This document shows, piece by piece, positions 2,359-47,062 of a stretch of 50,068 bases of DNA (position 1 is its first letter; each line of letters starts with the position of its first letter). The translations under genes were made by a program, and so were the position numbers. The notes beneath the pieces are model-generated. The model worked only from the letters and a program-made list of their open reading frames with translations, had not been told where the DNA came from and made no database searches. The stretch spans positions 1 to 50,068 of the forward strand of contig CAYSUI010000009.1 of assembly GCA_964434195.1 (NCBI GenBank). Reading direction: 5' to 3'. The DNA comes from an uncultured Candidatus Saccharibacteria bacterium (GTDB lineage Bacteria; Patescibacteriota; Doudnabacteria; UBA920).

Positions 2359-2383
2359 ATTTTGTCTGGTTTATTTGATTAAA

Positions 2384-2731: not shown

Positions 2732-2733
2732 AT

Positions 2734-3967: not shown

Positions 3968-4011
3968 AAATAAGGTTTGTAATTAGTTTTCCATAGGATT
4001 ATACTTAGTCT

Positions 4012-4248
4012 ATGAATACTGATTTTAAAGAATTATTTGAATATTTTGACCAGCAGTTTGGTGAGCTGAAGGAGCGCATGGGGAATCTTGAAAGTGGCTT
4101 TAGAACTCTTCAGGTTTCAGTCGATAACTATGCAATGAAAGCCGATAACTATTACAAAGAAATGGCAGTGCTTATGCACAGGGTTGAACGCTTGGAAAAT
4201 ATTGTAAAAGAGTTAGCAGAAAAGAATGGTGTTAAGGTAACTTTTTAA
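4012..4248 (+). CDS. Small coiled-coil protein (78 aa), paralogue of 38032..38271
   Basis: Heptad-like sequence. Shares the N-terminal TDF, central SVD and EM, and C-terminal GV blocks with the 79-aa ORF at 38032. Confidence 0.65.
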   Translation: MNTDFKELFEYFDQQFGELKERMGNLESGFRTLQVSVDNYAMKADNYYKEMAVLMHRVERLENIVKELAEKNGVKVTF

Positions 4249-4262
4249 CTTAAAAACAAACA

Positions 4263-4694
4263 ATGGATACTTCAAATTTATCGGAAGAGCAATTAAAATT
4301 TTTGGATTCAAAATCTATAGGAGCTCTTATTCTAGGACCTAATCGTTTTTTTAGCTTAAATAATTTAAGTAAGGAATTTTATAAATCTTTCATACCTGTT
4401 TATTCTATGTTTCGAATGTGGCCACTAGCAATTTCTAATGGAAAACGGATTGCTTGGGAAAAAGGCAATTTTTCCAGCTTCCAAAATTTTCAGAGAAAAC
4501 AGAAACTTATTGATTATGGAGCGTATTTTTATTTGCTGGGTGGGTTTATCGGATTGATATGGGCTTTTATTTCTCTTGCTAGTAAGGTTGTAGGTTTTGA
4601 AATGGGAATTTTATCTTCATTCCTCCTTGGTTGCGTGGGTATATCTGTAATTATTGCTTTCATTATTCACTTTCAAGCACTAGCAAAGAAGTAG
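4263..4694 (+). CDS. Membrane protein (143 aa)
   Basis: C-terminal hydrophobic helices (YFYLLGGFIGLIWAFISL, ILSSFLLGCVGISVIIAFIIHF); 14 nt after the preceding gene. Confidence 0.6.
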   Translation: MDTSNLSEEQLKFLDSKSIGALILGPNRFFSLNNLSKEFYKSFIPVYSMFRMWPLAISNGKRIAWEKGNFSSFQNFQRKQKLIDYGAYFYLLGGFIGLIWAFISLASKVVGFEMGILSSFLLGCVGISVIIAFIIHFQALAKK

Positions 4695-4704
4695 ACAAAC
4701 TTTT

Positions 4705-4799
4705 ATAAATCTCCTTTATTAAAGCCAAGAAAGTTTTCCACCTGTTCCGAGATGGTCTACCAAAACAAAAGACACCGAGTATTCGGTGTCTTTTGTTTG
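4705..4799 (+). repeat. R-family repeat copy R4
   Basis: ataaatctcctttattaaagccaagaaagttttccacctgttccgagatggtctacc plus an approximately 16-bp hairpin aaacaaaagacaccga/tcggtgtcttttgttt. Confidence 0.85.
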
Positions 4800-4800
4800 C

Positions 4801-5648
4801 TTAGCTTTCTAGCTTGATACTTTTTTCAACCAATTTATATAACTCCTCATAACCATGAAGAAAAAAATCTGCTCCTGGGATACCGGCCTTTAATTTACCC
4901 TTATCAATATTACCTGTACTCCAATCGAAACAATCAATTAATATCTTCTCGTTTTCTTCAAATTTTGCTAAATACTCTGACTTTTGCATTTCATCCAGAC
5001 CAGCAATATCTACTACCCTCGATCCTCCTTCATAAATAAGCGAATCAACATCGTATCCTTTCGGTAATAAACCAACGCCTCCTAATGACATAAAAAACGA
5101 ATGGGGTTGGCTTGCAAAAAATTCGGGATCAAATTTGGCATTCCCGTATCTATCAATAACATAAGCACATAAGGCAACGGCTGTTCTACCATTTGCGTCA
5201 CGAAATATGTGATTAAGTCCACTCAAAAATAAAATCGCAGTACCTATTTTTTTTGAAACTTCTAATTTGTCAGTTTGTTTATCTATATTCTGCCTAAAAA
5301 TCTCAAAACCTTCATCAATTTTTTTAGTAAGTCATAATTTTTTGGTAAAGTTAATGATCGTAACTCGACCCCCTGGGCTTGATATATATTGTTTCTGCCT
5401 ACGATTGGAAAATCGGGCCCCGAATAATATGTATCAACAAATACATCACCTTCTATATGCTTTCCCCTTTGACCACTCTCCCCTATTTTATAATTACCTT
5501 CTTTAATGCTTCTATTAAAAATTTGAGCGATCCTACTTATTGGATATTCTTCTAATCTTTCCTTTTCGGCGGCTTGAAGAACCAAATCCCATTTGAAGGT
5601 TGATAGTGAACTATCGAGGTTTTCTGAGTAATGTTTTCTTTCAGTCAT
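4801..5648 (-). CDS. Fic/DOC family protein split into two frames at an A7 run (frameshift, slippage or pseudogene)
   Basis: The C-terminal frame has the Fic motif HIFRDANGR. The N-terminal ORF 5283..5648 has a GAGGAG SD. The two frames overlap only between 5283 and 5334, which contains cta-aaa-aaa-ttg. Confidence 0.75.
5319..5325 (-). promoter_or_regulatory. A AAA AAA heptamer, a possible -1 slippery site or homopolymer error inside the Fic gene
   Basis: Seven A on the coding strand. A -1 shift here joins ...NYDLLKK to IDEGFEIFRQN...HIFRDANGR. Confidence 0.4.
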
Positions 5649-5749
5649 ATAAATATATAAATCTCCTCTATATTAGCATTTATTTGGAACGGACCGCATC
5701 TAGATGATTTTAAATTTGACTCAGGAAACCCTAGTACTAAACTAATATT

Positions 5750-6283
5750 ATGAATTTGAATTTTATGAACTTTTTGTATATTTCGTTTTTTTTAATATCT
5801 GGTTATTTTTTCTTAATTTTTGTAGTACTAAGAATTTTGGTTCCATTTATGGGATTTTCTAGACTTAAATTACCAAAGGAGATACCGAATGCTATTAGAG
5901 AGAAAATTGAAGAACTAGAGACAAAGAGCGGCAACTCATACGAATATTTAAGAGAAGCTTATACCTATATTACTTCGAACTGGCATGCGGGTAGATTTAC
6001 TACAGTTTTATATGCTCATTTGGCTTTTAGAAAAAATTTAGAAAAAATAAATTCTACCCCCGGTTTTGCGCAGTGTAATACTCAGAACTATTTACTATTT
6101 GTTTTACTTGCGGGGAGTAAATATTTTAAAGAGTCGGACATTCGTGTCAGAACGGTATTTTTTAACATGTTTATACATCAGTATCTCGAGGTTCGGGTTG
6201 AGGACAAAACTCTAAACGTAGACCCAGCGGGGGCTAGTATAAGGGGTATGCCGCTCGGAAAATATATCTCATTCTTTGGTTAA
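5750..6283 (+). CDS. Membrane-anchored protein, possibly a transglutaminase-like cysteine peptidase fold
   Basis: N-terminal TM helix; a Cys...His...Asp-like spacing (GFAQCNTQNY ... IHQYLEV ... NVDP). Weak motif-level call. Confidence 0.4.
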   Translation: MNLNFMNFLYISFFLISGYFFLIFVVLRILVPFMGFSRLKLPKEIPNAIREKIEELETKSGNSYEYLREAYTYITSNWHAGRFTTVLYAHLAFRKNLEKINSTPGFAQCNTQNYLLFVLLAGSKYFKESDIRVRTVFFNMFIHQYLEVRVEDKTLNVDPAGASIRGMPLGKYISFFG

Positions 6284-6354
6284 ATATTAAACACGGGACT
6301 CACCGGTGTCTTTTGTTGTTACATAGGAATATACTTAGGGAAAGGAATATTTTT

Positions 6355-7221
6355 ATGTATGAGTTCTTGGAAAAAAATGAATATGGAAAAGTAGCGAAGG
6401 TAATATTGGAATTTTATGTTCCTTTAGCTTTGTCTCTCCCCTCTCTTAGGGCAAATGCTGCTTTAATGGATTCGAGGATTAAGGGCACAAACCAAACGGG
6501 CGCAGTAGATTATGTTACTAACGCAGATTTATATGTACAGAATGAAATAAAAAAATTTGTAAGGACCAAACATCCAGATTGGCAGTTTTGGGGAGAAGAA
6601 GGAAGAGACAATACCAAGAGACTTGAAGTCGCTAAGAAGTTTTTGTTTATTACTGATCCTATAGAAGGAACAAATAACTTTATAGCGGGCAAGGATGAAG
6701 CTTGGGGTTCAGTAGTTGCGCTTGTAGAAATAGAACATAACGAGCCTATTTTTGGAGTAGTCGCACATCCGGTAAAGAATATTTTTTATGTGGGACTTAA
6801 AGGTGGCGGTGCGTGGGAAATAAAATATGCAGATAATGGAAAGATTCTTTCCCTTTTAGAATTAACCAAAGAGCCTGAATTTCAAACTTTTACTTACAAT
6901 AATAGTCCGCATTTTGAGGTAAGCAAAACCAAGATGGTAGAAAAATTTTTAGAAGTATTAAAAAGTAAAAATGAAAAAGATAATTTTATTGACCCTGAAA
7001 GTGGAGCGCTTGAAGCGGTAAGATATAGAGGAACAATATATTTTAAAACCAGTAATGAAATGGCGGCGGTGTTTGTAATACTCGGAGAAATTGGAGGGAA
7101 AGTTACGGACTTCGATGGCAATAAATGGTCGCTTGGTATAAATACAATGGTTTCGGCTAGGAATAGTAAGGACTATGAATATTTACTTAATCTAGTGAGG
7201 CTGACCAGAGAAAATAAATAA
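6355..7221 (+). CDS. Inositol monophosphatase family protein
   Basis: WGEEG and FITDPIEGTNNF (DPIDGT motif). ATG 6355 is preferred over TTG 6313 (AAAGGA upstream). Confidence 0.8.
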   Translation: MYEFLEKNEYGKVAKVILEFYVPLALSLPSLRANAALMDSRIKGTNQTGAVDYVTNADLYVQNEIKKFVRTKHPDWQFWGEEGRDNTKRLEVAKKFLFITDPIEGTNNFIAGKDEAWGSVVALVEIEHNEPIFGVVAHPVKNIFYVGLKGGGAWEIKYADNGKILSLLELTKEPEFQTFTYNNSPHFEVSKTKMVEKFLEVLKSKNEKDNFIDPESGALEAVRYRGTIYFKTSNEMAAVFVILGEIGGKVTDFDGNKWSLGINTMVSARNSKDYEYLLNLVRLTRENK

Positions 7222-7259
7222 CCCACAGACTACTTTTCAGTTAGTTGTGGGTTGGAAAA

Positions 7260-7775
7260 TTAGGGGGCCATTCGAAGATCGGCGACACTGTTTGGACTTG
7301 CGAGCACGCAATCTTGATTGCCTCTTGTGCCTTTGAGCCATATTCTGGCACCTTCCACGATTTGCAATGGGGAGATACTCTTCCCTACAAACCAGTTAAG
7401 GGGAACGACCAGACTTACGCAACTTTCCTGGAAGCCGAAATCAATCTTGTCAGCGTATCTGGCGACACGATTGATTGTGAGCGCGCGATACATGGGGCCA
7501 AATGGGAATTGTGACTGGAGATGTGCAGCTATCTGCCCGAAAATACCTTTGCCGAAAGTGTTTTTGTATTCCCCTGTTCTTGCGGGCGCGTGAATGGGTT
7601 TGCATGACCAACTTCTCTGGTCGGCGCTGAAAGTTACAAACCCCACTTCCACGGAACCCTCCTTGAGACGGGCGATGAGTGTCCCGGTTATATCCCCACT
7701 CAACTCTCCCAACCTCAAATTTGTGACATCTGCTGAAAATTGTGGAATTTCGAAAGCTCCATCTATTCGTTTCAT
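7260..7775 (-). CDS. Hypothetical protein in a G+C-elevated patch (possible GNAT-like fold, weak)
   Basis: Longest of five overlapping ORFs at 7245-7791; NTFGKGIFGQIAAHL loosely resembles acetyl-CoA binding motif A. Confidence 0.45.
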   Translation of the reverse strand: MKRIDGAFEIPQFSADVTNLRLGELSGDITGTLIARLKEGSVEVGFVTFSADQRSWSCKPIHAPARTGEYKNTFGKGIFGQIAAHLQSQFPFGPMYRALTINRVARYADKIDFGFQESCVSLVVPLNWFVGKSISPLQIVEGARIWLKGTRGNQDCVLASPNSVADLRMAP

Positions 7776-12736: not shown

Positions 12737-15436
<2,700 letters not shown>

Positions 15437-34928: not shown

Positions 34929-34994
34929 TGGCTAGTTTTTTATTGGAATAGGGTCATATCCAAGTTGTTATCTATAAACTTCGCCCACTCTTTG

Positions 34995-35558
34995 TTACTT
35001 ACTGGTATTTCCTTCTTCTGCATCGAATGTAACCTGAAAAATAGTATCCGCAGGGAAACGCCCCTCTAAAACGTGCTTACCGGATTTGGGATTTCCATCG
35101 TCTAGCTCTGAAGTAATAACTATGGTTCTGTAATCTGACTTATCTCCATCTACTATAAAATCTAGTCTGGCTTCTTTGGTGGTAGGGTCGTATACTAATT
35201 TTCCTGTTGAAAAATAATCTTTTGTTAAAGGATTTTTTACCAGCCAACCTTCATAAAAATCTGTACCTGGGAGTGCTGGTAAGTTTTTAGCGATTACGCG
35301 ATGATATGTCTTTCCTTCGAAAACACCTAACCAAGCTGATCCATTAGCTCCGGATTTCGAGACATCTTTTATATTTACAGAGGCGGATTTAGTTATAACT
35401 GCGTCAAAATCTTTTTTTATTATTGGTGTTTCTTCAATTTTTTGGGTAGTCGTTATGGACTCCTCTGGTAACTTTGTATTCTCTCTCATTGAAGCATAGA
35501 CTACCCCGATACATACTAGAATTAACACTATTGCGATAGCCCATATCTTTTTGTTCAT
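34995..35558 (-). CDS. Membrane-anchored extracytoplasmic protein (anti-sigma-K RskA C-terminal-like domain, weak)
   Basis: N-terminal TM anchor; LPALPGTDFYEGWLV pattern. Confidence 0.4.
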   Translation of the reverse strand: MNKKIWAIAIVLILVCIGVVYASMRENTKLPEESITTTQKIEETPIIKKDFDAVITKSASVNIKDVSKSGANGSAWLGVFEGKTYHRVIAKNLPALPGTDFYEGWLVKNPLTKDYFSTGKLVYDPTTKEARLDFIVDGDKSDYRTIVITSELDDGNPKSGKHVLEGRFPADTIFQVTFDAEEGNTSK

Positions 35559-35688
35559 TGATGATGATTTATTATTGAATCTTATTGGTGTGAATTCCCG
35601 AAGCTAATAAAACTTTCCTATATAGTTACTCTAGTAAAAAATTTCTCTTCCTTTTTTCATTATAGTATATTTTTGGAGTCGCTAAGCT

Positions 35689-35876
35689 AAAAGGTATCAT
35701 ATCCTTTGTTTTTACCATTCCCCTGCTTTTTCAGAATCCCGACCAGATAATGTGATTAAATTATGCAGATTAGGACGTGAAATTTAGTACCTACCTGCTA
35801 GGGATCAAGTTCTACAGCAGGAGTGAGTGGTGGGATGGTATTAGCGAATTAAATTGTCATGCTCCTCTTGCCTTTG
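35689..35876 (+). repeat. S-family repeat copy S1 (most diverged full copy)
   Basis: aaaaggtatcatatcctttgtttttaccattcccctgc ... ttatgcagattaggacgt ... cagcaggagtgagtggtgggatggtattagcgaa ... gctcctcttgcc. Confidence 0.7.
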
Positions 35877-35936
35877 TTTCTATATACTATCCTGACACAT
35901 CGTTAGGATTCTCTTTTTTTCAGGCTCGGTATTTCC

Positions 35937-36557
35937 TTATTTTTTCCTTATCTCTCTTCGATCCACCAACTTTTCTTTTAAAAATTGTATGTAATAAGCT
36001 CTTCTGTCAGGATCTCTCAAGGTTGCAATTAAGGTTAAGACCAAACCAATGGGATCTCTCATGCCGGGATAAAAATTTGCTCGCACCTCTGAAATAAAAC
36101 TTCCTGGTATGAATTTTGGATCGGTTAAGTGATATAGCTCATGACTCTCTACAAACTTTTTTACTCTGTCTGGAAGATCCGCTCTTACATAAGCAATTCC
36201 TGTTCCTTCATAAGCTTCTCCAAAATGTAAACCGATAAAATCCTTGGTTACGTATCTTACCAAATATTCCTGTCCATCAATTTCTACTTTTTTTTCGGAA
36301 ATAATACCTAGCTCCTTAAATTCTTCCGACACTTCTGCATTCCTATCATTATTTACAACTATCTCATCAATCTCTCCTCTTACCTCACTCAGATCTCTCT
36401 CTGAAGCTTGCTGATAATCTCTCCCCTTATCTACTCTTAGTTCTACTTTTGGCTTTTCAGGAGTATTCTCTGGAAACTTAAAATCCGCGTTATTTATTTC
36501 TGTATTATTTTCTAACTCATTAGACATGTAATCATTATAATTGAAATACTTTCCCAT
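35937..36557 (-). CDS. Hypothetical protein with an HExxH zinc-metallopeptidase-like motif
   Basis: VESHELYHLTD; acidic low-complexity N-terminal half. Confidence 0.5.
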   Translation of the reverse strand: MGKYFNYNDYMSNELENNTEINNADFKFPENTPEKPKVELRVDKGRDYQQASERDLSEVRGEIDEIVVNNDRNAEVSEEFKELGIISEKKVEIDGQEYLVRYVTKDFIGLHFGEAYEGTGIAYVRADLPDRVKKFVESHELYHLTDPKFIPGSFISEVRANFYPGMRDPIGLVLTLIATLRDPDRRAYYIQFLKEKLVDRREIRKK

Positions 36558-36669
36558 AGAAAAGCTAGATCTTAGAGACGGTACCCTTTTGATAGTAGGA
36601 CATTGCCGAAGATCACCTTTATAAGGTGGCCTTTGCTTCTGCCATGATTGTGTACAAAAAAACAGCTCA

Positions 36670-36873
36670 CTAGGGGCTGCATTTGGTGATTGGCATTGCG
36701 AATTCCTCAGTTACATGCACAAGCAGCGCTACTGTTACTGGGAATGACATTAGCGCAAAGAGCAGAAATACCCCTGCGTTCTCAAACAGCATTGCCAGGA
36801 GTGTACAGAGATACAGCGCTTGCGCGATACAGAGATCCGACTTAATTTGCGGACCAAAAGGGCTTTGGTACAT
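36670..36873 (-). CDS. Small hydrophobic protein (67 aa, 2 TM)
   Basis: AAGGAGG 9 nt upstream of the ATG on the minus strand. Preferred over the overlapping plus-strand ORF 36683..36949. Confidence 0.5.
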   Translation of the reverse strand: MYQSPFGPQIKSDLCIAQALYLCTLLAMLFENAGVFLLFALMSFPVTVALLVHVTEEFAMPITKCSP

Positions 36874-36986
36874 AGCAAAACATCCTCCTTTCGCGAGGAT
36901 TATTACATACTACTTCAACTTGGGCAACGGCCATTTCAGCAACCTTTGAAGTCGGTTATACTGGTAGTAACTTAATACTTACTTCT

Positions 36987-37544
36987 ATGGATTTATTTAA
37001 AACTTTAAAAGATGCGCCTGGCTTGGTACTATCTCCTTTCATTAAACAAGAGATGCAAAACAGGAAGCACATGTACCGAACGCTTAAGGCACGTGCTAAT
37101 CAGAAACGTACTGCGTATGAAAAAATCGCAGACTATATAAGCACTGTGGTCGGGAGTTTTACTTTTCTAGTACTTAATGCAATCTGGTTCTGTGTTTGGA
37201 TACTTATTAATACCGATAACTTTTTTGGAATATTTACAGTTTTCGATCCCTTTCCGTTTGGTTTTCTAACCATGATTGTTTCTTTGGAAGCCATAGTACT
37301 TTCGATTATTGTTTTAATTTCTCAGAATAGAAATAGCCGAGTGGATGATCTACGCGAAGAAGTACATCTGCAAGTTAACGTAATGGCGGAGCAGGAAATA
37401 ACTAAAATTATTAAGATGCTTGCAAAACTTTCCGAGAAAAATGGCATTGATATTTCTCAAGATAGAGAACTGCAAATGATGCTAAAACCATTGCAGGCTC
37501 AAAATCTAGAGAAAAATTTAGAGGAAGAGATAAGCAAGGGTTAA
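36987..37544 (+). CDS. DUF1003 family membrane protein
   Basis: FDPFPFGFLTMIVSLEAIVLSIIVLISQNR core typical of DUF1003. Confidence 0.75.
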   Translation: MDLFKTLKDAPGLVLSPFIKQEMQNRKHMYRTLKARANQKRTAYEKIADYISTVVGSFTFLVLNAIWFCVWILINTDNFFGIFTVFDPFPFGFLTMIVSLEAIVLSIIVLISQNRNSRVDDLREEVHLQVNVMAEQEITKIIKMLAKLSEKNGIDISQDRELQMMLKPLQAQNLEKNLEEEISKG

Positions 37545-37573
37545 TTTTTCAACTCAGCAATAAAGGAGTGCCT

Positions 37574-37762
37574 ATGCAGCAAAGAATCGATGGGGATTTT
37601 CGAGTGATTTTTAAAGGTATACCCTATTTCCCACTATTTTTTATTTCAAAGACAATTCTGAAACCCGGAGATGGTAAGAGGTGTGCATGCGTATACGCAC
37701 TGCACATTACCCCTTTCTTTACAATCGGATTCAACTGGAGAACAAAACAAGATATCGCATGA
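37574..37762 (+). CDS. Possible small protein (62 aa)
   Basis: AAAGGAG 5 nt upstream of ATG 37574; the stop lies in the loop of the terminator at 37749-37776. Confidence 0.35.
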   Translation: MQQRIDGDFRVIFKGIPYFPLFFISKTILKPGDGKRCACVYALHITPFFTIGFNWRTKQDIA

Positions 37763-37776
37763 GCGATATCTTTTTT
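37749..37776 (+). terminator. Intrinsic terminator
   Basis: gatatcgc-atga-gcgatatc-tttttt. Confidence 0.8.
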
Positions 37777-37826
37777 ATATTTATTAACCACTCTCTTTAT
37801 TTTCTCAGTGGTTGCCAGGTGGTTGC

Positions 37827-37944
37827 GTCCCTCCACCAGCTGGTGGAGGGACGTATAGCTTTAACAAAAACAAAAGAGGGACTTGTTAGCAGCAGGTGTG
37901 AGCGGTGGGATGGTATTAGAAATTCTACGAAGTTCCCCTGTTGA
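37827..37944 (+). repeat. S-family repeat copy S2, starting with a perfect 26-nt palindrome
   Basis: gtccctccaccag/ctggtggagggac then gtatagctttaacaaaaacaaaagagggacttgttagcagcaggtgtgagcggtgggatggtattagaaattctacgaagttcccctgttga. Confidence 0.85.
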
Positions 37945-38031
37945 AAGTACTAACCATTTTTGACTTTAGTTTTTCCCATTGACAGGTATTTATCCTATAC
38001 CCTATGATTAAATGACCTTAATTATATATTT

Positions 38032-38271
38032 ATGAGCGATACTGACTTTGCTCCATTACTTACATATTTAGACGAGAAGTTCCAAGAGCAGGACAAACGG
38101 TTTGATAAAATGGAAACTGATATTGGAGAACTTCGGACATCGGTTGATAAACTTGCTCACCACGTACTATCTTTCCAGCAAGAAATGACTATTATGACTA
38201 TGAAGGTTGGGAGAATGGAAAGTTGGATACAGCAAGTAGCTGCTAAGGTTGGTGTTGAATATAAAGCTTAG
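38032..38271 (+). CDS. Small coiled-coil protein (79 aa), paralogue of 4012..4248
   Basis: Collinear similarity to the 78-aa ORF at 4012; terminator follows. Confidence 0.65.
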   Translation: MSDTDFAPLLTYLDEKFQEQDKRFDKMETDIGELRTSVDKLAHHVLSFQQEMTIMTMKVGRMESWIQQVAAKVGVEYKA

Positions 38272-38297
38272 AAAGACACTTGAGCGGTGTCTTTTTT
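38272..38297 (+). terminator. Intrinsic terminator
   Basis: aagacac-ttgagcg-gtgtctt-tttt. Confidence 0.75.
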
Positions 38298-38306
38298 GTG
38301 ACGGTT

Positions 38307-38366
38307 AAAGGGTCATGTCCCCTTTGTTTTTCCTTTGTTTTTCCCTTTGTTTTTTTTGTTTTTTAC
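38307..38366 (+). repeat. T-family hairpin followed by a short tandem repeat of cctttgttttt
   Basis: aaagggtcatgtcccctttgttttt-cctttgttttt-ccctttgtttttttt-gtttttt. Confidence 0.7.
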
Positions 38367-38468
38367 GCGAAAGAGTATTTAAGCACTTTTGGGGTTTATG
38401 GTCAATACGAGGATTGCAGAAAATTAGCGAAGTTGTCGTAATTACGACGAGTTTACTAATTTGTTTTA

Positions 38469-38684
38469 CTATTCCAGAATAATACTGAGGGCAAAAATAC
38501 AGATACTCATACTCATTGCCCCTAAAATAGACCTTAACATGACTTTGTTTTTATTTAGCAGACCACCTTCATCTTGTAATTTATAGAACTCTGTAGGATA
38601 TTTTGTTCTAACTATCTGAATTTCCCGAGAAGTCCAGATAATTAATGTCAGCAAAATTCCAACAACTACGGTATGTAGCCACAA
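38469..38684 (-). CDS. Small membrane protein; the reading frame stays open and hydrophobic upstream of the TTG start
   Basis: In-frame upstream extension ...VTSALVFYVLSGGYGIYLIFGNPGS precedes LWLHTVVVGILL, but has no ATG/GTG/TTG after the TAA at about 38792. Confidence 0.45.
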   Translation of the reverse strand: MWLHTVVVGILLTLIIWTSREIQIVRTKYPTEFYKLQDEGGLLNKNKVMLRSILGAMSMSICIFALSIILE

Positions 38685-38875
38685 GGACCCAGGGTTACCA
38701 AATATTAAATATATTCCATACCCCCCGCTTAGAACATAGAAGACGAGGGCAGAGGTTACTTTTTTCGAGATACTTTTATTTATTTACTCTTGCGTCTCCT
38801 GGGTAGATATTGTTTCCATACTTTAATATTAGCCATCTTAGCTCCCCTTGCGAGAGTTGCTTTTGTTGGCATTAC

Positions 38876-39280
38876 CTATAATTGCTGTTTGAATAAGGTT
38901 TTTTTGGTCGCAAAATATATTGCGGTCGAAGCAACGACTGCAAAGATTGTACCTTTTATAATATACCAATCACTTTGCCTCTCTTCGATCTGATTCCATG
39001 CACTTGTTATGGCAAAGACCAAAGTCAAGACAATGAGAACTTTTTTAAATGTATTAATATTTACAACTAACTTCTCCCCTATTACTGCAAATCCAATAAG
39101 AAATAGACCTATAAATATTTCCGTTAACGTATAAAGAACGAAGGCGATTGACAGTACTCCCCCTATAGCGACTCCTGGGTTGTCTCGGAAAATAATATAA
39201 GCCAATCTAATAGTGTCGTAACTATCATATAGGAGGTAAGATGCGATTACAATGCAAAAAATTTTTAGTAGGTATTTCAT
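38876..39280 (-). CDS. Membrane protein (134 aa, 4 TM)
   Basis: Hydrophobic helices; ATG start. Confidence 0.55.
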   Translation of the reverse strand: MKYLLKIFCIVIASYLLYDSYDTIRLAYIIFRDNPGVAIGGVLSIAFVLYTLTEIFIGLFLIGFAVIGEKLVVNINTFKKVLIVLTLVFAITSAWNQIEERQSDWYIIKGTIFAVVASTAIYFATKKTLFKQQL

Positions 39281-39361
39281 CTTCTATCTTTATTTAATTA
39301 CTACCATTATACACCCAAGCTAATATGGCGATTTTTGGTAATGCTAAACGCGCGCTAATTT

Positions 39362-39512
39362 TTATGCAGGGATGGGACGTATAGCTTTAGTGCTCACCGA
39401 AGAGGGACTTGTTAGCAGCAGGCGTGAGTGGTGGGATGGTATTAGAAATCCCACAAAGCTCCTCTTGCGAGGGTGACCTTAGTTTAAAGGATCATGTCCC
39501 TTTTGTTTTTTG
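39362..39512 (+). repeat. S-family repeat copy S3 (contains a 34-codon ATG ORF at 39372..39476) ending in a T hairpin
   Basis: ttatgcagggatgggacgtatagctttagtgctcaccgaagagggacttgttagcagcaggcgtgagtggtgggatggtattagaaatcccacaaagctcctcttgcgagggtgacc...aaaggatcatgtcccttttgtttttt. Confidence 0.85.
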
Positions 39513-39534
39513 ACTTTGGAATATTTTCGATTTC

Positions 39535-40437
39535 TTGCGATACTATGAGAGATTTAATTTTAAGAAATTTATGAGCGGAAATTCTGAATTTAATACCTTC
39601 ATGGGAGAAGTGCAACCAAAACCAAAATTAGGTGCAATCGAGTTACTAGAAGAATTAGATAAAAAAGAGAGCGAGGAAGCGCTTTCCATAGAGTACTCAC
39701 TTATCGAAAGCGTTAGAGAATTAAATGAAACTTATAGCACTTATGCAGATCAACTCAATTCGATAAGAAGAGAATTGGGGCTTGAAAATATAGATTTTAA
39801 ACCTGAGGACTATCGTTTAATAAAACCTACGGTTTACGACACCAGTCCATTCTTAACTAAATATGGTAAAGCAGGTGCATTTCATGATCCTATAACCGGA
39901 GTGATTTTTTTACGCTTTGACCTAGAAGCATATGGGTCGGCCGATGGAAACAAGGCCTATTACCATTATGTGGTGGGTCACGAAACCACGCATAAAAGTA
40001 TGGCGGGGTATGGGATTGGAAGATATTCAGAAGATTTAAATGAAGGAATGACGGAAGTAATAAATAGACAGATCTTTCATGACACCATAATACCCAGACT
40101 GAGACTGGGAAAACAAAGTCATGAGAATGACGAGTATATTAGAAGGTACGAACCAACTGTTGATGGAATTAAAATTCGAGAAGATGATATTTTATATTCG
40201 GATGAAGATGTAGATACTCTTGTGTATACAAGGGTAAGGGAGACCCGACTTATCGAAATGATTAAAGCTTTGTCCCCTGAGTGTTATGAACAACTTTTAT
40301 CTGCATGCTTTCGGGGAGAAGATGAAGAAGCTCGCGAGATAATATCTAAATATATGGGAGAAGATTGGGCAAAAAAATTTGGCAACCGTAGATTTAGCGT
40401 GCTCGATTTATATAGAGAATTAGAAAAGATAAGCTGA
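39535..40437 (+). CDS. Hypothetical protein with an HExxH metallopeptidase-like motif (start may be ATG 39571)
   Basis: YVVGHETTHKS with downstream NEGMTE; TGA stop. Confidence 0.55.
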   Translation: MRYYERFNFKKFMSGNSEFNTFMGEVQPKPKLGAIELLEELDKKESEEALSIEYSLIESVRELNETYSTYADQLNSIRRELGLENIDFKPEDYRLIKPTVYDTSPFLTKYGKAGAFHDPITGVIFLRFDLEAYGSADGNKAYYHYVVGHETTHKSMAGYGIGRYSEDLNEGMTEVINRQIFHDTIIPRLRLGKQSHENDEYIRRYEPTVDGIKIREDDILYSDEDVDTLVYTRVRETRLIEMIKALSPECYEQLLSACFRGEDEEAREIISKYMGEDWAKKFGNRRFSVLDLYRELEKIS

Positions 40438-40449
40438 TCCGAGAAAGGC

Positions 40450-40641
40450 AAAAGGGAGATTATACTTTGTTTTACCATTCCCCTGCGAAGCTGATCTTCG
40501 GTTATAGTTTTAGCAAAAACAAAAGAGGGACTTGTTAGCAGTAGGCGTGAGTGGTGGGATGGTATTAGAAATTCCACAAAGCTCCCCTTGCGAAGATGAC
40601 CTGGGTTTAAAAAACAAAGGGTCATGTCCCCTTTGTTTTTC
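40450..40641 (+). repeat. S-family repeat copy S4 ending in a T hairpin
   Basis: aaaagggagattatactttgttttaccattcccctgcgaag...aaaagagggacttgttagcagtaggcgtgagtggtgggatggtattagaaattccacaaagctccccttgcgaagatgacc...caaagggtcatgtcccctttgttttt. Confidence 0.85.
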
Positions 40642-40710
40642 TTACAGAATTCGAAATGTGAAGATGCAGAATAATGTCTTTTTTCTCTTGATTTTTTTAC
40701 AATATAAATT

Positions 40711-41223
40711 TCAGTGCGTTAGAAATGGAGATACAATTTCATGGACTCGTTCCATGGTAATACCATGATGTTGTTCTCGGGCTAATGGATGATCTGTGTG
40801 TTCGAGTTCAATTTTAGGTCGCGAACCACGCTCTTGCTGATGAACGTGGGTTTTTAAATCTAATGTTTCTGGGTAACCGTCGATGCTATTGGATAGCCAA
40901 CCGAAATAGGGTGGTTCTTCTGCTCTATGATCTGATTCCCACGTATCCACATAACGATTGAAGTTTTTTTCGTTTAAAGAAACCCAGACACCGTAACTGA
41001 ACTTTTCTTCTGAATTAATTATGGGAATCTCTAAAACACCACGTATAAAGAAGTGTCCGTTCCTTAAAATATATACGTCGGATGTTAACGTCTTTTCTGA
41101 TTCTATATCTTCTGGATCGTAATATAGAGGTTTATCGTAACCAATTGCTAATGGAAATTCATCGTGATATTTATCACAAGTACTGCAAGTAAAACCCATG
41201 AAATTTGATATTAATAGCACCAC
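40711..41223 (-). CDS. DUF2199 family protein (likely start ATG 41199, MGFTCSTC)
   Basis: CSTC...FSYGVWVSL...YFGWLSN...HPLAREQHHGIT pattern. Confidence 0.6.
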   Translation of the reverse strand: MVLLISNFMGFTCSTCDKYHDEFPLAIGYDKPLYYDPEDIESEKTLTSDVYILRNGHFFIRGVLEIPIINSEEKFSYGVWVSLNEKNFNRYVDTWESDHRAEEPPYFGWLSNSIDGYPETLDLKTHVHQQERGSRPKIELEHTDHPLAREQHHGITMERVHEIVSPFLTH

Positions 41224-41232
41224 TATCTTATC

Positions 41233-41449
41233 AAAAAGGATGAGCGGTGGCTAATTCATTTTCGATTATTTGGGAATGAAATAAAAAAAGGTTCCTGACC
41301 CCTTTTGTATTCTTTATAGACAAAGAAAGTCCCCTACCCTTACAATGGGCTCCGGTTCAGGAACCAGGAAGACCAGGTGGTTTGCTTGAGAGAGAAGTGA
41401 TTGCGTTTAAAAAGATATAAAAACAAAGGGTCATGTCCCCTTTGTTTTT
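41233..41449 (+). repeat. Degenerate S-family copy S5 ending in a T hairpin
   Basis: aaaaaggatgagcggtggctaattc resembles the S core gtgagcggtgggatggtattag; ends caaagggtcatgtcccctttgtttttt followed by ccatgcag. Confidence 0.4.
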
Positions 41450-41463
41450 TCCATGCAGTTTCT

Positions 41464-42015
41464 TCAAGGAGAAATGCCTGTATTACCTTCAATCAGATTT
41501 ATTATGTAGTCAAGCTCAGGGATTCGCAACCGCTGCTCTTCTAATAATTCTTTGGTAAAAAGTTTCTCGTATTCTCTTGCTTCTGATCTTTTCTCTTTTT
41601 TTATATGGATTGATTCAAACTCTGACTTGCACCACTTAGATTTTTTTTCTGTGAATGATTTTCCACCATTCAGGATGGACAGCAATAACGCTTCTAAACA
41701 TGGAGTATTTTCAATAATAATAATACCTCTTTTACGGGCCTCATCTCTGGCTTCCTGCATCTCCTTCTCTGATTTATCGTTATCAACGAAAACCACTTTA
41801 CTATCGAATGCTCCAGGTCTTTTTTGAGCATCCAATACCACGTTTCTAGGAGTACCACCCTTACCTTTACCGATAGTCACGACTACATCACTATTAAAAG
41901 CGTAGAGACCTTTCAATCTTTTTAAAAACATCTCCTCACCAAGCCCCTCGCCAAATACGAGCAATGTTTTCTTTGCAGATCGTGGTTTTTGTTTATATGG
42001 ATCGTTTTGCGACAT
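41464..42015 (-). CDS. RloB-like (TOPRIM/OLD-nuclease-related) protein, partner of the upstream ATPase
   Basis: LLVFGEGLGEEMFLK N-terminus and VVFVDNDKSE...GIIIIENTPCLEALLLSIL, matching the RloB pattern (EGxxE ... D-x-D ... SNPCFElWlL). ATG lies 2 nt after the ATPase stop. Confidence 0.65.
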   Translation of the reverse strand: MSQNDPYKQKPRSAKKTLLVFGEGLGEEMFLKRLKGLYAFNSDVVVTIGKGKGGTPRNVVLDAQKRPGAFDSKVVFVDNDKSEKEMQEARDEARKRGIIIIENTPCLEALLLSILNGGKSFTEKKSKWCKSEFESIHIKKEKRSEAREYEKLFTKELLEEQRLRIPELDYIINLIEGNTGISP

Positions 42016-42017
42016 AT

Positions 42018-43226
42018 TTATAATTTTGGCACCGCACCGTAAGCACCAGCAATATATTTTGTATAATAATTATCATCTGCCCTGACCCCACTCATCTCAT
42101 CTAGTCGCCAAGCTTCACTGACCCCCTTTTCATTCTTTTCTATTAGAATGATCTGGTATTTATCCAATTTACTTAAAACCCTGTGGCTGTGAGTACTAAA
42201 TAAAATTTGAGCATTTTTCGGATTTGTATTTGGCTCCAAAAACAATTCAAATAGACTCATTACCATATCAGGGTGCAAGTTTACATCAAATTCATCTATA
42301 ACTGCGGTACCACCATTCAGCAAAACCTGGAGAATAGTCTTCAGTAACACAAATAACTGTTTAGTGCCTGAGGATTCGTACTGAATAGGTAGGTACCCTT
42401 TATGGCCGTCGAAAGAATGGACTACTTGTACATTTATAGAAAGATCATTTGCTTTCTTCTCTTTAAGGATATTAAACGCTTCCAGGCCAAGATCAAAACG
42501 AGACAATAACTTCTCGGCCTCCTTCTTTATTTGTTCATTGTCGCTGTAAAAGTCTAAAGCTTCGATCAATTGCTGTCCTGCATTGGGCAACAAATGATCC
42601 CCTGCCCATCCCGCCTCTACAACATTTGTCTCCAGGTGATTCCAAAAATTTGCTATTTCCTTACTTTCTCCATGATTTAGTCGTATCGCGATACTCACTA
42701 TACTTGCATTTGTACGAAGTAAACCTTCAAAACCTTTTGGTAAATCAAAGTTTTTTTCATCTAAGATGTACACTTTATTTTCTTCATCCCAAGTCCGTAC
42801 GAATAGTTTTTTACTTGAATAGTTTTCTTTAATCTTGCTTTTTAAGATCAATTCTTCTGATACAATCTTGGAAGCATTTAAAATAAAATTATACGTGTAT
42901 ATCTTCTCTTGGATTTCAAATGTGACACCAAGCTCAGAATTACTATCTTTATATCCATCAAACATACAAGGACGTAAAGGCAACCTAGCTGCAGGATCAC
43001 TATTAAATGAATCAATTATCAACCATTTTAATAGGGGCAAGACTTTTAAAAGATTAGTCTTCCCCGACGCGTTGGATCCTATTACTGTCTCAATCTTTGA
43101 TAGTCGTGCACCCGACAATGATGAAAAATAACCGTGATTATCCGGTGCGTTGTCATTTACCACGAAACTCACGTTCGCGTCTTCCCCAAAGGAGTAGAAA
43201 TTTTTACAATTGAAAGAATGGATCAT
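42018..43226 (-). CDS. AAA_21/ABC-type ATPase of the OLD/AbiLi/AriA class
   Basis: Walker A GSNASGKT, signature-like ESSGTKQLF, Walker B VIDEFDVNLHP, H-loop FSTHS, C-terminal AYGAVP. Confidence 0.8.
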   Translation of the reverse strand: MIHSFNCKNFYSFGEDANVSFVVNDNAPDNHGYFSSLSGARLSKIETVIGSNASGKTNLLKVLPLLKWLIIDSFNSDPAARLPLRPCMFDGYKDSNSELGVTFEIQEKIYTYNFILNASKIVSEELILKSKIKENYSSKKLFVRTWDEENKVYILDEKNFDLPKGFEGLLRTNASIVSIAIRLNHGESKEIANFWNHLETNVVEAGWAGDHLLPNAGQQLIEALDFYSDNEQIKKEAEKLLSRFDLGLEAFNILKEKKANDLSINVQVVHSFDGHKGYLPIQYESSGTKQLFVLLKTILQVLLNGGTAVIDEFDVNLHPDMVMSLFELFLEPNTNPKNAQILFSTHSHRVLSKLDKYQIILIEKNEKGVSEAWRLDEMSGVRADDNYYTKYIAGAYGAVPKL

Positions 43227-43576
43227 ATTTGATAATTAATCTTTGTCTAATAATATTATAATATGACTATTATTAAATTTCAATGATTTAAACAAAATTA
43301 TGTTAAAATTGGCTAAATATTGCTTATTTTTACCCAATTTTAAGCAGTTTTTAAATGTGTTAAAAATGGTTTCTAAGCAAATAAAAAGCCTCAATTTGTG
43401 CCATTAGAAAACAAGTCACCCCCTGCCAAATAGGGGGAGTGATTTATTTTAACTGTTTCTATTCTGATGTAACAGCATTTCTACTGCAAGATTTAAATAA
43501 CCAGCTTGGGTGATTTGGTCGCTGCTTACAAAGTAGATTTCGTAGACGTTTTTGACTCCATTTTCAAACCACATAT

Positions 43577-43669: not shown

Positions 43670-46600
43670 TTAAAACCTATCATCCTCCCTAATAAACGTA
43701 AGGAAGAGAATTGGAATAACAAACAGTGTCAGGAATGAGGAGAGGAAGAGGCCGAAGATAACGGCACTGCCTAGACCTCGCCAGAATGCGTCGCTGATTG
43801 TTATAGGGACAATACCGAGAATGGTGCTTACGGAAGTTATGAAGATAGCTTCAAATCTTGCTTTACCTGCATCTATAACTGCTTCGTAAAATGGAATACC
43901 ACTGCTGATGTTTAGGTTAATTTTATCTACTAAGATAATTGCGTTTTTAACCACAATTCCGAAGAGGGCTAAGATACCTATGAGCCCCGGGAATCCGAGA
44001 GGCATATTGAATATAGCTAGACCTAAGAAGACACCAATAAGTGCGAGTGGAATAGTCATGAGCACAATGAGTGACTTACGGAAACTATTAAACTGAACGA
44101 TCATCGTTGCCACAATGAGCACCATAGCTACCACCATAGCCTGAATAATTGAGATAACCGATTTCTGATTTTCTTCGTTCTGGCCACCGAATTTTATTTC
44201 GTAACCTGCTGGCAGATTGTAATCCTTGGTTTTCTCTCTAAAAGCGGCAAGAATGCTGGTAGAGTTTGCTTCTCCGCTCGCATCTGCTTTTAAAGTAACG
44301 GTTCGTTTTTGATCGATACGACTTATAGAATCTACCGAAGGGCGTAATTCAATAGTTGCAACATCTTTTAGATAGACCGGTTGCTTTCTAAGATTGAGTA
44401 TCTGTAGGTTTTGAATACTCTCTAGGGTTGGAATTTGGTTGGAACCAAAGTTGGCGTTAATTTTTATCTCCTCCCCTTCTTCTAGAATGGTAGACACTTC
44501 TGTCCCAGAGATTGCCATACGCAATACACTTCCAACATAGGCTGCGTTTAAATTATTTTGTTCAAGCTTTACAGGATCCAGAACAAATGTAAATTCTGGA
44601 GCGGAATCTTTGAGTGAAATATCTATGTTTACGGCACCAGGAATTTCTTTTAGTTTGCTTTCGTAATCGCGCACTATACGATCTAAGGTCTTTAGGTCCT
44701 CACCAGAAATTTGTGCCTCGAAAGCAGCTCCGGTAGGAGGACCACCTGCTTGGGCAGAAACTGAAATTACCGCTCCGCTAATTTCCGATAATTTATTTCT
44801 GAATACACTTTCTAACTCATACGATTCAGCACTTCTCTTATCTCTATCTACTAAGGTAACGTTTACCGAAGCTGTATTACTTGAAGCACGACCTCCTTGA
44901 TTGGCCGCACTTGGTGACCCTGTTGAACTGGTAAAGTTTGCAATTTCCTTGAAATTGACAAGCTTTGTTTCTACTTCTTTAACTACTTTGTCGGTTTCTT
45001 CTAGGGTTGTACCAACTGGTGTTCTAATATCTATGAATACATAGTCAGAATCTTGCTTGGGGAAGAATTCGCTTCTAACTATTCCTGTAACTGGCATTAG
45101 CACAGCAATAACGAAAGCGGCAGAAACGATACCAAGCGTAATTCTTCGATTTCTTCGATTGACTGTAACTTTCCTTAGTGCTCTCTCGTAAGGGATTAGG
45201 AATCGGTCAAAATGAATGACTCCATGCATTAACCGTGTAAAGAAACTCTCGTTAGAACGAGAATTACCTTGAGCAACTAACTTAGCCTTAATTAACGCTT
45301 CATCTTTCCATTCTGCTTTTACCAGTCGAGCGTTTTCGATTAGCTTTTCCCTACCGCCGGATTCATACCATCCTAGCATTCTAATTAGAATAGCCACTAA
45401 GACAGCACCGAGAATGAAACTAATAAACCCACCACTCATGAATAAATAACCTGCGACACCTAGCAAGAGCAGCTCTACTATAAAGAAGAATTTCTTAGTG
45501 AGTCTGATTCTCTCCAAAACTGCTGCCAAAGGGTGGTTTATCATGAGAGCGACAAACAAACTAGAAATTAACGTGATGGTTATAGTAATTGGAATAGATT
45601 TTAGATACTCGCCAATAATACCTGTAGAGAACAACAACGGTAAGAATGCCCAGACTGTTGTGAGAGTTGTTGTTGTTAATACTACTTTGAAATCGTTTAG
45701 AACCAATAGCACTGCTTCTTCTGGAGTGAACTTACCGCTCTTTAAATACTGCTTGGTTGCGGACACAACCACAATAGCATCGTCCACCAACAGACCGAGA
45801 GCAAGTATTAAAGAGAATGTCGTAAGAAAGTTGAGCGAGACACCAATTAGATTCAGAACAGTAAACGTAGAGAAGAATACCAACGGAATAGCCAGACCGG
45901 CGACAAAAGCTTCTTTAAGACCTACGATTAAAAACAATAAAGCAAAGACTAGAAGAATGGTTGTAATAAAGTCGTGACCGAGCTGATTAAAATCATCCCT
46001 GACTATTTTTGCGAAATCGTTAGTTATATCGTAATGGATACCTGCGGGCATTGTTTTTACCAATCTATCCGCGGTGGCTTTTGCTTGGTCGGCTGTATCT
46101 AGAATGGAACTACCAGTACGTTTGATTATCGAGAGGGTTACTGCATTTTGTGGTTTTGAACCCTTAATGGATAACCTAGAGAAGGATGTTTTTTTAATTG
46201 CCCTTTCTGTTACCTGAGCGATATCTTTAACATAGACAACTGAGCCAGTATCGTTATGACTTACTGGAATATTACCTATAGCTTCTTTTGTGTATACCCT
46301 TGAATCTGTTCTCACAGAGTACACAAATTTTTCACCGTCAAAGTTACCTGCTGGAAATGCTAAATTGGTAGCTCTAATTGCATTATTAGCCTGGTCTGAG
46401 GATACGTTGTAGTAAACAAGCTTGCTTGGATCGTAGGATACTTCGAACTCTTTTTCATCGCCACCAGACAATCTTACTTCACGGACTCCAGGTATTTTTT
46501 CTAACTCATCTTTTACGTCTTCACCTGCTTGGCGCATGGTAAAGCCGTCGTATGGCCCTGTTAGAACCATGGTCCAAATTGGTTGGTCGTCTAGAGAGAT

Positions 46601-47062
46601 TTCTTGTACAACTGGTTCTTTAGCATCTTCAGGAAGGTCTGGTTTTACGCTATCGACCTTGTCTTTTAATCTTCTTACTGCGTCTTCAATGTTTTCATCC
46701 GAATTAAATTCTACAGTTAATACAGATACAGAGTTTGAGGAATTAGAAGAAACTTTATCCAGCCCTTTTAAGCCTGCAATTTTAGCTTCGAGTTTTTTTG
46801 TTACTAACTCTTCGATATCTGAGGGACTTGCTCCAGGGTATGCGACACTAACAATTGCGATAGGAATTTTTACCTCGGGATTAGATTCTCTTGGGAGTTT
46901 AATAAAGGAGTAAATACCCGCTGTACTTACAAGTACAATGAGTAATAGGACGACTCGAAAATTTACCACGAAAAAATTGAGCCAACTTTTTTTAAGTTCT
47001 GGTTTAAATTCGAGCTGATCGAGATAACGCTCGTCTGATGTTTTTGGTTGTTGTTCGTTCAT
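43670..47062 (-). CDS. RND family efflux transporter permease (AcrB/AcrD/AcrF-like)
   Basis: 1130 aa, two 6-TM bundles with large loops, N-terminal FVVNFRVVLLLIVL...; typical AcrB_AcrD_AcrF architecture. Confidence 0.9.
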   Translation of the reverse strand: MNEQQPKTSDERYLDQLEFKPELKKSWLNFFVVNFRVVLLLIVLVSTAGIYSFIKLPRESNPEVKIPIAIVSVAYPGASPSDIEELVTKKLEAKIAGLKGLDKVSSNSSNSVSVLTVEFNSDENIEDAVRRLKDKVDSVKPDLPEDAKEPVVQEISLDDQPIWTMVLTGPYDGFTMRQAGEDVKDELEKIPGVREVRLSGGDEKEFEVSYDPSKLVYYNVSSDQANNAIRATNLAFPAGNFDGEKFVYSVRTDSRVYTKEAIGNIPVSHNDTGSVVYVKDIAQVTERAIKKTSFSRLSIKGSKPQNAVTLSIIKRTGSSILDTADQAKATADRLVKTMPAGIHYDITNDFAKIVRDDFNQLGHDFITTILLVFALLFLIVGLKEAFVAGLAIPLVFFSTFTVLNLIGVSLNFLTTFSLILALGLLVDDAIVVVSATKQYLKSGKFTPEEAVLLVLNDFKVVLTTTTLTTVWAFLPLLFSTGIIGEYLKSIPITITITLISSLFVALMINHPLAAVLERIRLTKKFFFIVELLLLGVAGYLFMSGGFISFILGAVLVAILIRMLGWYESGGREKLIENARLVKAEWKDEALIKAKLVAQGNSRSNESFFTRLMHGVIHFDRFLIPYERALRKVTVNRRNRRITLGIVSAAFVIAVLMPVTGIVRSEFFPKQDSDYVFIDIRTPVGTTLEETDKVVKEVETKLVNFKEIANFTSSTGSPSAANQGGRASSNTASVNVTLVDRDKRSAESYELESVFRNKLSEISGAVISVSAQAGGPPTGAAFEAQISGEDLKTLDRIVRDYESKLKEIPGAVNIDISLKDSAPEFTFVLDPVKLEQNNLNAAYVGSVLRMAISGTEVSTILEEGEEIKINANFGSNQIPTLESIQNLQILNLRKQPVYLKDVATIELRPSVDSISRIDQKRTVTLKADASGEANSTSILAAFREKTKDYNLPAGYEIKFGGQNEENQKSVISIIQAMVVAMVLIVATMIVQFNSFRKSLIVLMTIPLALIGVFLGLAIFNMPLGFPGLIGILALFGIVVKNAIILVDKINLNISSGIPFYEAVIDAGKARFEAIFITSVSTILGIVPITISDAFWRGLGSAVIFGLFLSSFLTLFVIPILFLTFIREDDRF

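Follow-up and report, generated by a model that had tools for sequence, protein, structure and literature searches.

The subject of this analysis is a variable gene island in a 50,068-nt stretch of DNA (hereafter the window) from an uncultured Candidatus Saccharibacteria bacterium (assembly GCA_964434195.1, contig CAYSUI010000009.1), together with a non-coding repeat of about 120-200 nt, here called S, whose direct copies subdivide this island. The island occupies positions 34944 to 43576, between an AlaX-like gene that ends at 34928 and the terminator of a gene for a resistance-nodulation-division (RND) pump. Its surroundings are those of an ordinary chromosome, with genes for an ATP synthase, an extracytoplasmic function (ECF) sigma factor and the RND pump. 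Our Pfam searches revealed no recombinase or transposase domain in any open reading frame (ORF) of at least 110 amino acids in the window, in keeping with the original prediction, an earlier reading of this DNA from its letters alone, in which no recombinase had been seen.

The first group of genes in the island to be considered, module 1 (35937-37544), encodes a 206-aa protein with an HExxH motif and a 67-aa membrane protein, both on the minus strand, and a DUF1003 protein on the plus strand. It is followed by the gene for a 79-aa coiled-coil protein, cc79 (38032-38271, plus strand), and by a segment of 1030 bp (38323-39352, minus strand) with membrane-protein ORFs of 71 aa and 134 aa. Next comes the gene for HExxH-300 (39535-40437, plus strand), an orphan protein that forms one cluster in 5.8e9 and for which gene callers begin at the ATG at 39571, giving 288 aa. 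It had been listed earlier as a second HExxH protein; it shares no homology with that of module 1, and the two are unrelated. A gene for a DUF2199 protein (40711-41223, minus strand; its start is probably the ATG at 41199) and a minus-strand gene pair (41464-43226) complete the set. The pair consists of an RloB-like gene (41464-42015) and an AAA_21 ATPase gene (42018-43226), which PADLOC identifies as the abortive-infection, anti-phage pair AbiLii (1e-9) and AbiLi (2.5e-69), respectively. Pfam agrees with the DUF1003, DUF2199, AAA_21 and RloB assignments made earlier.

Five direct copies of the S repeat had been described in this island. Four of these, S1 to S4, are genuine members of the family: all lie on the plus strand within 4.8 kb, and each carries the exact 22-nt core GTGAGYGGTGGGATGGTATTAG (at 35823, 37898, 39424 and 40547), for which zero chance matches are expected. 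S2, S3 and S4 align without gaps over about 109 nt at 72-86% identity, and the spacings from S1 to S4 are 2075, 1526 and 1123 nt. That S2-S4 have a common core from which S1 has diverged holds true; over the 48-nt core AAGAGGGACTTGTTAGCAGYAGGNGTGAGYGGTGGGATGGTATTAG, S2, S3 and S4 agree with one another at 44-45 of 48 positions and S1 agrees with them at 32-33, since the 5' arm of S1 is of a different type. In the right part of the core S1 agrees with the other copies, from which it differs in both its 5' and its 3' arm. In its full form, as present in S3, S4 and in the copy Sb of a relative discussed below, the S unit consists of a 5' arm with TTATGYAGGGATGGGACGTATAGCTTTAG CAAAAACAAA, the core, a 3' arm AAATTCCACAAAGCTCCCCTTGCGA and an intrinsic-terminator hairpin. 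The arm types are interchangeable: 5' arms are of type X or N, and 3' arms of type A, A2, B or G. We built a profile from the eight known copies (S1-S4 in the window; Sa, Sb, Sc and Sc10 in relatives), and it detected no S beyond S1-S4 in the window.

The individual copies differ in architecture. S1 (35686-35909; nhmmer E=4e-22) opens with a hairpin plus ACCATTCCCCTGC, continues with an X-type 5' arm, the core (35797-35844) and a G-type 3' arm (GCGAATTAAA...), and has its own terminator-like hairpin at 35889-35909. S2 (37827-37957; E=4e-31) combines an N-type 5' arm, the core (37872-37919) and an A2-type 3' arm, and its terminator hairpin is deleted; downstream of it lies a promoter-like TTGACA-18-TATGAT (37979-38008), and then cc79. 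A perfect 26-nt palindrome, GTCCCTCCACCAGCTGGTGGAGGGAC, at 37827-37852 stands in S2 in place of the usual 5' arm segment and dominates a folding z-score of -5.6. S3 (39353-39512; E=1e-33), with an N-type 5' arm, the core at 39398-39445, an A-type 3' arm and a terminator hairpin at 39486-39510, ends 25 nt ahead of the HExxH-300 ORF. S4 (40442-40642; E=6e-32) begins, like S1, with a hairpin plus ACCATTCCCCTGC, has an N-type 5' arm with an internal deletion, the core at 40521-40568 and an A-type 3' arm, and closes with a bidirectional terminator hairpin (40610-40640). The common start of S1 and S4 that had been noted earlier, ctttgtttt(t)accattcccctgc, is found in both; the copy Sc of the relative is likewise preceded by a hairpin and then ACCATTCCCCTGC or a variant of it. 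We also considered the core as a promoter and rejected this idea, as neither inspection by eye nor a promoter scan gave an acceptable sigma-70 or ECF-type spacing; the upstream regions of the nearby ECF sigma operon have nothing in common with S.

Most S copies are bracketed by terminator hairpins of the CCTTTGTTTT type. The hairpin AAAGGGTCATGTCCCCTTTG occurs exactly at 38307, 40616 and 41425, and with two mismatches at 39486, so that the claim that S3, S4 and the supposed fifth copy all end in it is exact for the latter two and approximate for S3. Its 31-nt form, AAAAACAAAGGGTCATGTCCCCTTTGTTTTT, has exact copies at 40610 and 41419, a nearly exact one at 38301 and a degenerate one at 39480. 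The motif CYTTTGTTTT, which represents the 3' arm of the hairpin with its tail, is present 14 times in the window against about one expected occurrence, and 11 of the 14 lie inside the island; the hairpins are therefore a second island-associated repeat. The supposed fifth S copy (41233-41449, plus strand) is not a member of the S family. It is the intergenic region between the DUF2199 and AbiLii genes, with a weak hairpin at 41281-41311 and an exact copy of the S4 hairpin at 41419-41449. What it shares with S is just this 31-nt terminator hairpin, its GATGAGCGGTGG match of 74% is at chance level, and the S profile finds no match in the interval. The DUF2199 gene and the AbiL pair are thus separated by hairpins only. 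Since no S copy is present at the right end of the island (43577), the fifth module of the original prediction, the ATPase pair, is not delimited by S.

Searches with the AlaX-like gene of the left flank retrieved one GTDB representative, a metagenome-assembled genome titled 'uncultured Candidatus Saccharibacteria' (L009), which is the closest relative; sequence identical to it is present in JGI and Logan contigs (L019, L021-L024). The window organism itself occurs in the Logan runs SRR13287418-26 and SRR10132684-6, and exact-protein look-ups for further strains gave just the window strain, the L009 type and a DRR23545x variant. Logan contigs, which are short-read assemblies (k=31; L001-L008, L010, L025), break off inside S or precisely at the 31-nt hairpin repeat, and the island is fragmented in public assemblies and easily missed. 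The window and L009 are collinear up to 34943 (L009 10013) and again from 43577 (L009 16599). Hence both flanks, the AlaX-like gene and the RND pump gene, are kept, and the content between them differs. In L009, six unrelated genes are followed by Sa, a cc79 pseudogene, Sb, HExxH-300 and Sc, and the pump gene lies 49 bp past Sc. These three S copies stand at the syntenic place in L009, L019 and L021-L024, and none is present elsewhere in the sequence examined. Present in the window and missing from L009 are the RskA_C gene, S1, module 1, the 1030-bp segment (its counterpart in L009 measures 67 bp), and 3 kb with DUF2199 and AbiLi/AbiLii; among the island proteins, cc79 and HExxH-300 alone have homologues across the two islands. 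Module content is therefore not invariant, which bears out the variation among relatives that the original prediction had proposed to look for. Its counter-scenario, S copies scattered genome-wide, does not apply to the sequence we examined: apart from the island, neither the window nor about 27 kb from the relative contains a copy, and none occurs in L020, an unrelated lineage that carries a cc79 homologue. Within these sequences, S is confined to this locus in this lineage.

The gene for cc79, which in L009 is conserved together with the S2 3' arm, carries an in-frame TAG there (15094-15096; also in L010 and L021-L025) where the window has GAA, which leaves a 50-aa product; in L009-type strains, cc79 is either truncated or a pseudogene, with a promoter region that is 95% conserved despite this premature stop. 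The homology between the window and L009 breaks at 38322, inside the terminator hairpin region of the cc79 module (38301-38364, plus strand). Behind the hairpin, its 3' arm and tail, CCTTTGTTTTT, recur as three tandem copies (38320-38364), exactly at the break; these copies may be the scar of repeated events or of slippage at the hairpin. The 1030-bp segment that begins at this point has the hairpin as its left border and the outer edge of S3 as its right border; neither is an S core. The notion that the repeats split the island into modules accordingly stands in so far as content varies between S copies, and has to be amended in that several indel borders lie at hairpins and not at cores.

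A comparison of the S arms in the two genomes points to exchange between S copies. Written as 5' arm, core and 3' arm, the window reads X-core-G, module 1, N-core-A2, cc79, N-core-A, HExxH-300, N-core-A, DUF2199 and AbiL; L009 reads X-core-A2, cc79 pseudogene, N-core-B, HExxH-300, N-core-G and pump. Sa, the leftmost copy of L009, has an X arm that is 85% identical to that of S1 and an A2 arm that is 82% identical to that of S2. It thus equals the left half of S1 joined to the right half of S2, so that presence or absence of module 1 corresponds to one reciprocal exchange between two S sites. Sc of L009 joins an N arm to a G arm resembling that of S1. In L010 and L025, which are 99.4% identical to L009, this copy has an A-type 3' half (Sc10), with 7 differences in the 40 nt from GAGGGACT; this difference is a recombination tract and not the result of point mutation. 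Such chimeric copies are the product expected of reciprocal recombination between S sites. The crossover that gave rise to Sa lies no further left than the last X-arm-specific base, about 8-10 nt upstream of GTGAG, and no further right than the fifth base of this motif, and that distinguishing Sc from Sc10 lies at least 24 nt upstream of GTGAG. The two positions hence differ by at least about 16 nt.

The divergence between the window and L009 further shows that one module has crossed lineages. Identity at four-fold degenerate sites amounts to 43% in the RND pump gene, 63% in the gene for a membrane fusion protein (MFP), 67% in a 580-aa gene, 72% in SelR and 78% in the AlaX-like gene; it is 81% (21/26 sites) in cc79, itself an island gene, and 94.6% (87/92) in HExxH-300 (binomial p = 2e-5 against 78%). 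The contrast between HExxH-300 and the flanking genes with their 43-78% means that this module was exchanged between lineages recently. The three codon positions of HExxH-300 (39535-40437 against L009 15481-16383) are about equally diverged, at 96.0/97.3/95.3% identity; constraint on the module is weak, which suggests relaxed or diversifying selection since the exchange. HExxH-300 has S copies on both sides in both genomes; the stretch of high identity around it (about 39498-40453) begins at the 3' arm of the S3 terminator and reaches the hairpin opening S4, its ends being hairpins and not cores. The cores of orthologous S copies are identical at 87/96 positions, above the neutral expectation of 67-78% (p = 1e-3 to 8e-8) and about at the coding average, and the arms of the same copies are just 59-67% identical, a divergence of 30-40%. 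We presume that this core conservation reflects recombination, gene conversion, or some RNA or DNA function. At the right border of the island, the RND pump gene (43670-47062, minus strand, against L019 10217-13609) is 74% identical at the nucleotide level with the 43% four-fold identity given above, and its neighbours (MFP, SelR, left flank) reach 63-78% at four-fold sites; this may point to an exchange of alleles longer ago or to a faster rate at this border.

Collectively, a repeat, its confinement to one island in the sequence examined, variable gene content, chimeric repeat copies and a recent exchange of HExxH-300 are observed. S is a previously undescribed repeat, present in one lineage, that organises a flexible island in a bacterium of the candidate phyla radiation (CPR). 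These data lend themselves to a reading to which we accord about an even chance, namely that of a flexible island in which the S copies provide portable homology for homologous recombination. The direct copies would serve as homology patches, and recombination within or beside them would delete, insert or swap modules of one to three genes, both inside the genome and with DNA of related lineages, probably after DNA uptake. The enzymes involved would be those of the general homologous-recombination machinery, acting on identical stretches of 20-45 nt, and as an outcome strains would differ in their sets of orphan, membrane and anti-phage (AbiL) genes. As judged from the sequence comparisons, homologous rather than site-specific recombination is most likely at work, because crossovers vary in position, further borders coincide with hairpins, and the vicinity contains no recombinase.

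Flexible islands or 'minimal mobile elements', such as those described in naturally transformable Neisseria, are exchanged through homologous recombination between their conserved flanks. The S island resembles them in its conserved flanks, its alternative small gene sets that lack mobility genes, and a module that is less diverged between lineages than the background; to this come the variable crossovers. It differs from them in that its homology patches are internal, repeated, non-coding and chimeric, and split the island into several separately exchangeable modules.

Several points weigh against homologous recombination at portable repeats. The evidence comes from only three haplotypes at one locus, and a recombinase or more S copies may lie beyond the window and the roughly 27 kb of the relative. 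The identical stretches between copies are short (22-45 nt) and marginal for RecA-type recombination. Homologous recombination alone does not account for the presence of unrelated genes between S copies, and the arm pattern (X-core-A2 ... N-core-G) is also exactly the product of a Campbell-type site-specific integration at the core. Moreover, the HExxH-300 tract ends in hairpins, so that S may not be the only or the main crossover substrate.

Saccharibacteria have tiny, highly syntenic genomes, and to our knowledge, how they gain accessory and anti-phage genes is poorly understood. The locus described here shows a concrete route, with one island subdivided by a private non-coding repeat, modules whose presence differs between species-level relatives and even between strains that are 99.4% identical, and one orphan gene that crossed lineages recently. 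Homologous recombination at S would make it a compact case of modular exchange scaffolded by repeats in a reduced genome, and site-specific recombination would make it a new cassette system of CPR bacteria. The practical value is modest, in that S marks a hypervariable locus and breaks short-read assemblies.

The original prediction had likened the layout to a cassette array or to serial insertion at one site. Conserved flanks, differing content, chimeric S copies and the exchange of HExxH-300 agree with this picture; attC boxes, an integrase and a fixed crossover, which it would also call for, were not found. In this alternative, which we regard as possible though unlikely, S is the attachment site of a site-specific system, and a recombinase encoded in trans moves circles that each carry a module and one complete S (N arm-core-3' arm). 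Integration and excision would take place at the core, preferably at the leftmost X-type site, as in integron attI x attC reactions or tandem integrative elements. The arms fit such a scheme perfectly, as insertion of a module-1 circle (G arm...N arm) into the leftmost site of the L009 array would yield the arrangement of the window; moreover, a conserved core with variable arms is att-like, every copy is direct, the modules are small and free of mobility genes, and the core lies within an imperfect hairpin that is kept in most copies. It is difficult to reconcile with this scheme that two independent junctions lie at least about 16 nt apart, that no recombinase is found in the 50 kb, that the core is without dyad symmetry or R''/R' boxes, and that the right end of the island has no S and other indels stop at hairpins.

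Known cassette systems offer instructive parallels. Integron arrays and clusters of attC sites lacking integrases (CALINs) also contain small, mostly uncharacterised genes separated by repeats of about 60-150 nt in one orientation that form hairpins, as S may do, and CALINs are likewise without a nearby integrase (Cury et al., 2016, PMC4889954). S differs from attC in having no R''/R' boxes (RYYYAAC/GTTRRRY), in that the genes of the island occupy both strands and have promoter-like and terminator signals of their own, and in that its junctions vary in position, fall in the central or left part of the repeat and are not at the R' end. Our search for attC boxes on both strands of S gave one candidate, GTTAGCA at the 5' side (with C as the third R), that has no 3' partner. 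We therefore rejected an integron or CALIN, given the missing attC boxes, the mixed gene orientation, the variable crossover and the lack of a Phage_integrase domain in the window. Tandem integrative elements that leave att repeats in islands, such as tycheposons (10.1101/2020.12.28.424599), share with the S island direct att-like repeats throughout the island, cargo or defence modules between them, and arms that fit successive integrations at one site. The repeats of tycheposons are partial tRNAs, whereas S is not a partial tRNA or tmRNA and no full-length target gene is found at either end. An integrase or a remnant of one is likewise not seen by Pfam in the island of the window, and the precomputed Pfam matches for the six extra island genes of L009 list only Aminotran_3. 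A tRNA-att array was rejected because ARAGORN and Rfam are negative for tRNA and tmRNA at S and a target gene is missing.

The dif/pdif modules of Acinetobacter plasmids, which depend on XerC/D, resemble the S modules in comprising one to three genes, including some of the toxin or defence type, in either orientation and delimited by short conserved sites (PMC6449649, PMC13141974). Their recombinase is encoded elsewhere, and their 28-bp sites have dyad symmetry (11-6-11) and alternate in orientation (PMC6449649, PMC13141974), unlike S with its 48-nt core that has no dyad symmetry and its copies that are all direct; on these grounds, Xer dif modules were rejected. S might instead be the recombination site of an undescribed cassette system of Saccharibacteria, in which small promoter-bearing modules with one S of about 150 nt each would be captured at a fixed chromosomal site (X-core-G) and shuffled; we consider this doubtful. 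Such a system would be analogous in function to integrons or dif modules, with an unrelated site and a recombinase encoded elsewhere. A literature search on Saccharibacteria in combination with repeats or attC returned no relevant report.

It is also rather unlikely that S is primarily a functional RNA, either a small RNA family or a cis-acting leader, with recombination as a by-product. On the plus strand, the right half of the core pairs imperfectly with the 3' arm in a hairpin, for which the evidence is weak; an intrinsic terminator is added to it, and a long-range pairing between AAAAACAAAAGAGGGAC and GTCCCCTTTGTTTTT could act as an anti-terminator; indeed, the minimum free energy folds of S3 and S4 contain a competing long-range helix. 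S1, S3, S4 and Sb end in terminator hairpins about 20 nt or less from the core hairpin, S3 and Sb lie directly upstream of HExxH-300, and S2 and Sa lie upstream of cc79. Across the eight copies, 87.5% of the cells pair, changes in the stem are from G-C to G-U on the plus strand, three different types of 3' arm have each kept their pairing with the conserved 5' arm, and the core is conserved above the neutral rate. Against a functional RNA speaks that the eight-copy alignment shows no covariation beyond that of shuffles and a consensus fold of only -4 kcal/mol. Strong folding z-scores for the core hairpin (about -3.1/-3.2) are found in S2 and S3 alone, the other six copies ranging from -1.6 to +0.35, and the hairpins of Sa, Sc and Sc10 are weakened. 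Furthermore, S1, S4 and Sc are not followed by any gene on their own strand, and no convincing sigma-70 promoter precedes the repeat. Rfam 15 at its gathering threshold gave no match to S, its sole find in the window being a cut tRNA that lies distant from the island, at 1-52, and a search of 35500-41600 with Rfam at E<=10 returned nothing; ARAGORN found no genes.

Repeated insertion of a non-autonomous element, similar to a miniature inverted-repeat transposable element (MITE) or a repetitive extragenic palindrome (REP), into intergenic terminators is improbable. The size (about 130 nt), the association with hairpins and the 5' segment AAAAACAAAAGAGGGAC, which in S3, S4 and Sb is complementary, in the manner of a terminal inverted repeat (TIR), to the 3' arm of the terminator, would suit it. 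This TIR-like pairing is restricted to these three copies, where it coincides with the terminator; the right 'TIR' is lacking in S2, S1 and Sc, and the left homology runs past the putative TIR. A duplication is not evident at the S ends. No transposase was found, the copies are all direct at one 5-kb locus per genome piece, and no dispersed copies are seen in the window, the roughly 27 kb of the relative or L020. Called ORFs, used as a proxy for wider distribution, were negative too, with just two S-derived ORFs in about 15 billion predicted proteins, both from known copies. Within the sequence examined, the lack of dispersion argues against a MITE or REP. S has no blastn match in phages or plasmids either, and scans of genome, metagenome and viral contig collections with an exact 20-mer and with a degenerate 28-mer yielded 0 matches, zeros that are weak evidence because the JGI contig L019 (3300005002), whose Sc fits the degenerate pattern, was not returned.

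The idea that the S copies are displaced 3' ends of a protein or RNA gene, duplicated by serial integration at that gene, is largely refuted and deserves hardly any credence: one plus-strand frame, ...KTKEGLVSSRREWWDGIRNSTKLPLRR followed by a stop, is open in 8/8 copies and has the terminator hairpin next to it in S3 and S4, and ORFs were called on two copies (S2 and Sc; singletons, apart from spurious repeat proteins), but substitutions among the copies show no codon-position bias or periodicity, a peptide profile of the frame returned these two ORFs only from 5.8e9 protein clusters and 1.84e9 representatives, S matches no tRNA, tmRNA or Rfam family, and the parent gene carrying S that the original prediction had suggested looking for was searched for and not found, with no intact in-frame gene upstream of the first copy in either the window or L009.

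Far from the island, the cut tRNA at 1-52 of the window is followed by a stretch of ORFs (245-7775) without Pfam matches, which contains a 78-aa paralogue of cc79 (4012-4248, plus strand; 33% identity). The stretch has no S copy and, at 1188, one hairpin that resembles those of the island; it may be another variable region.

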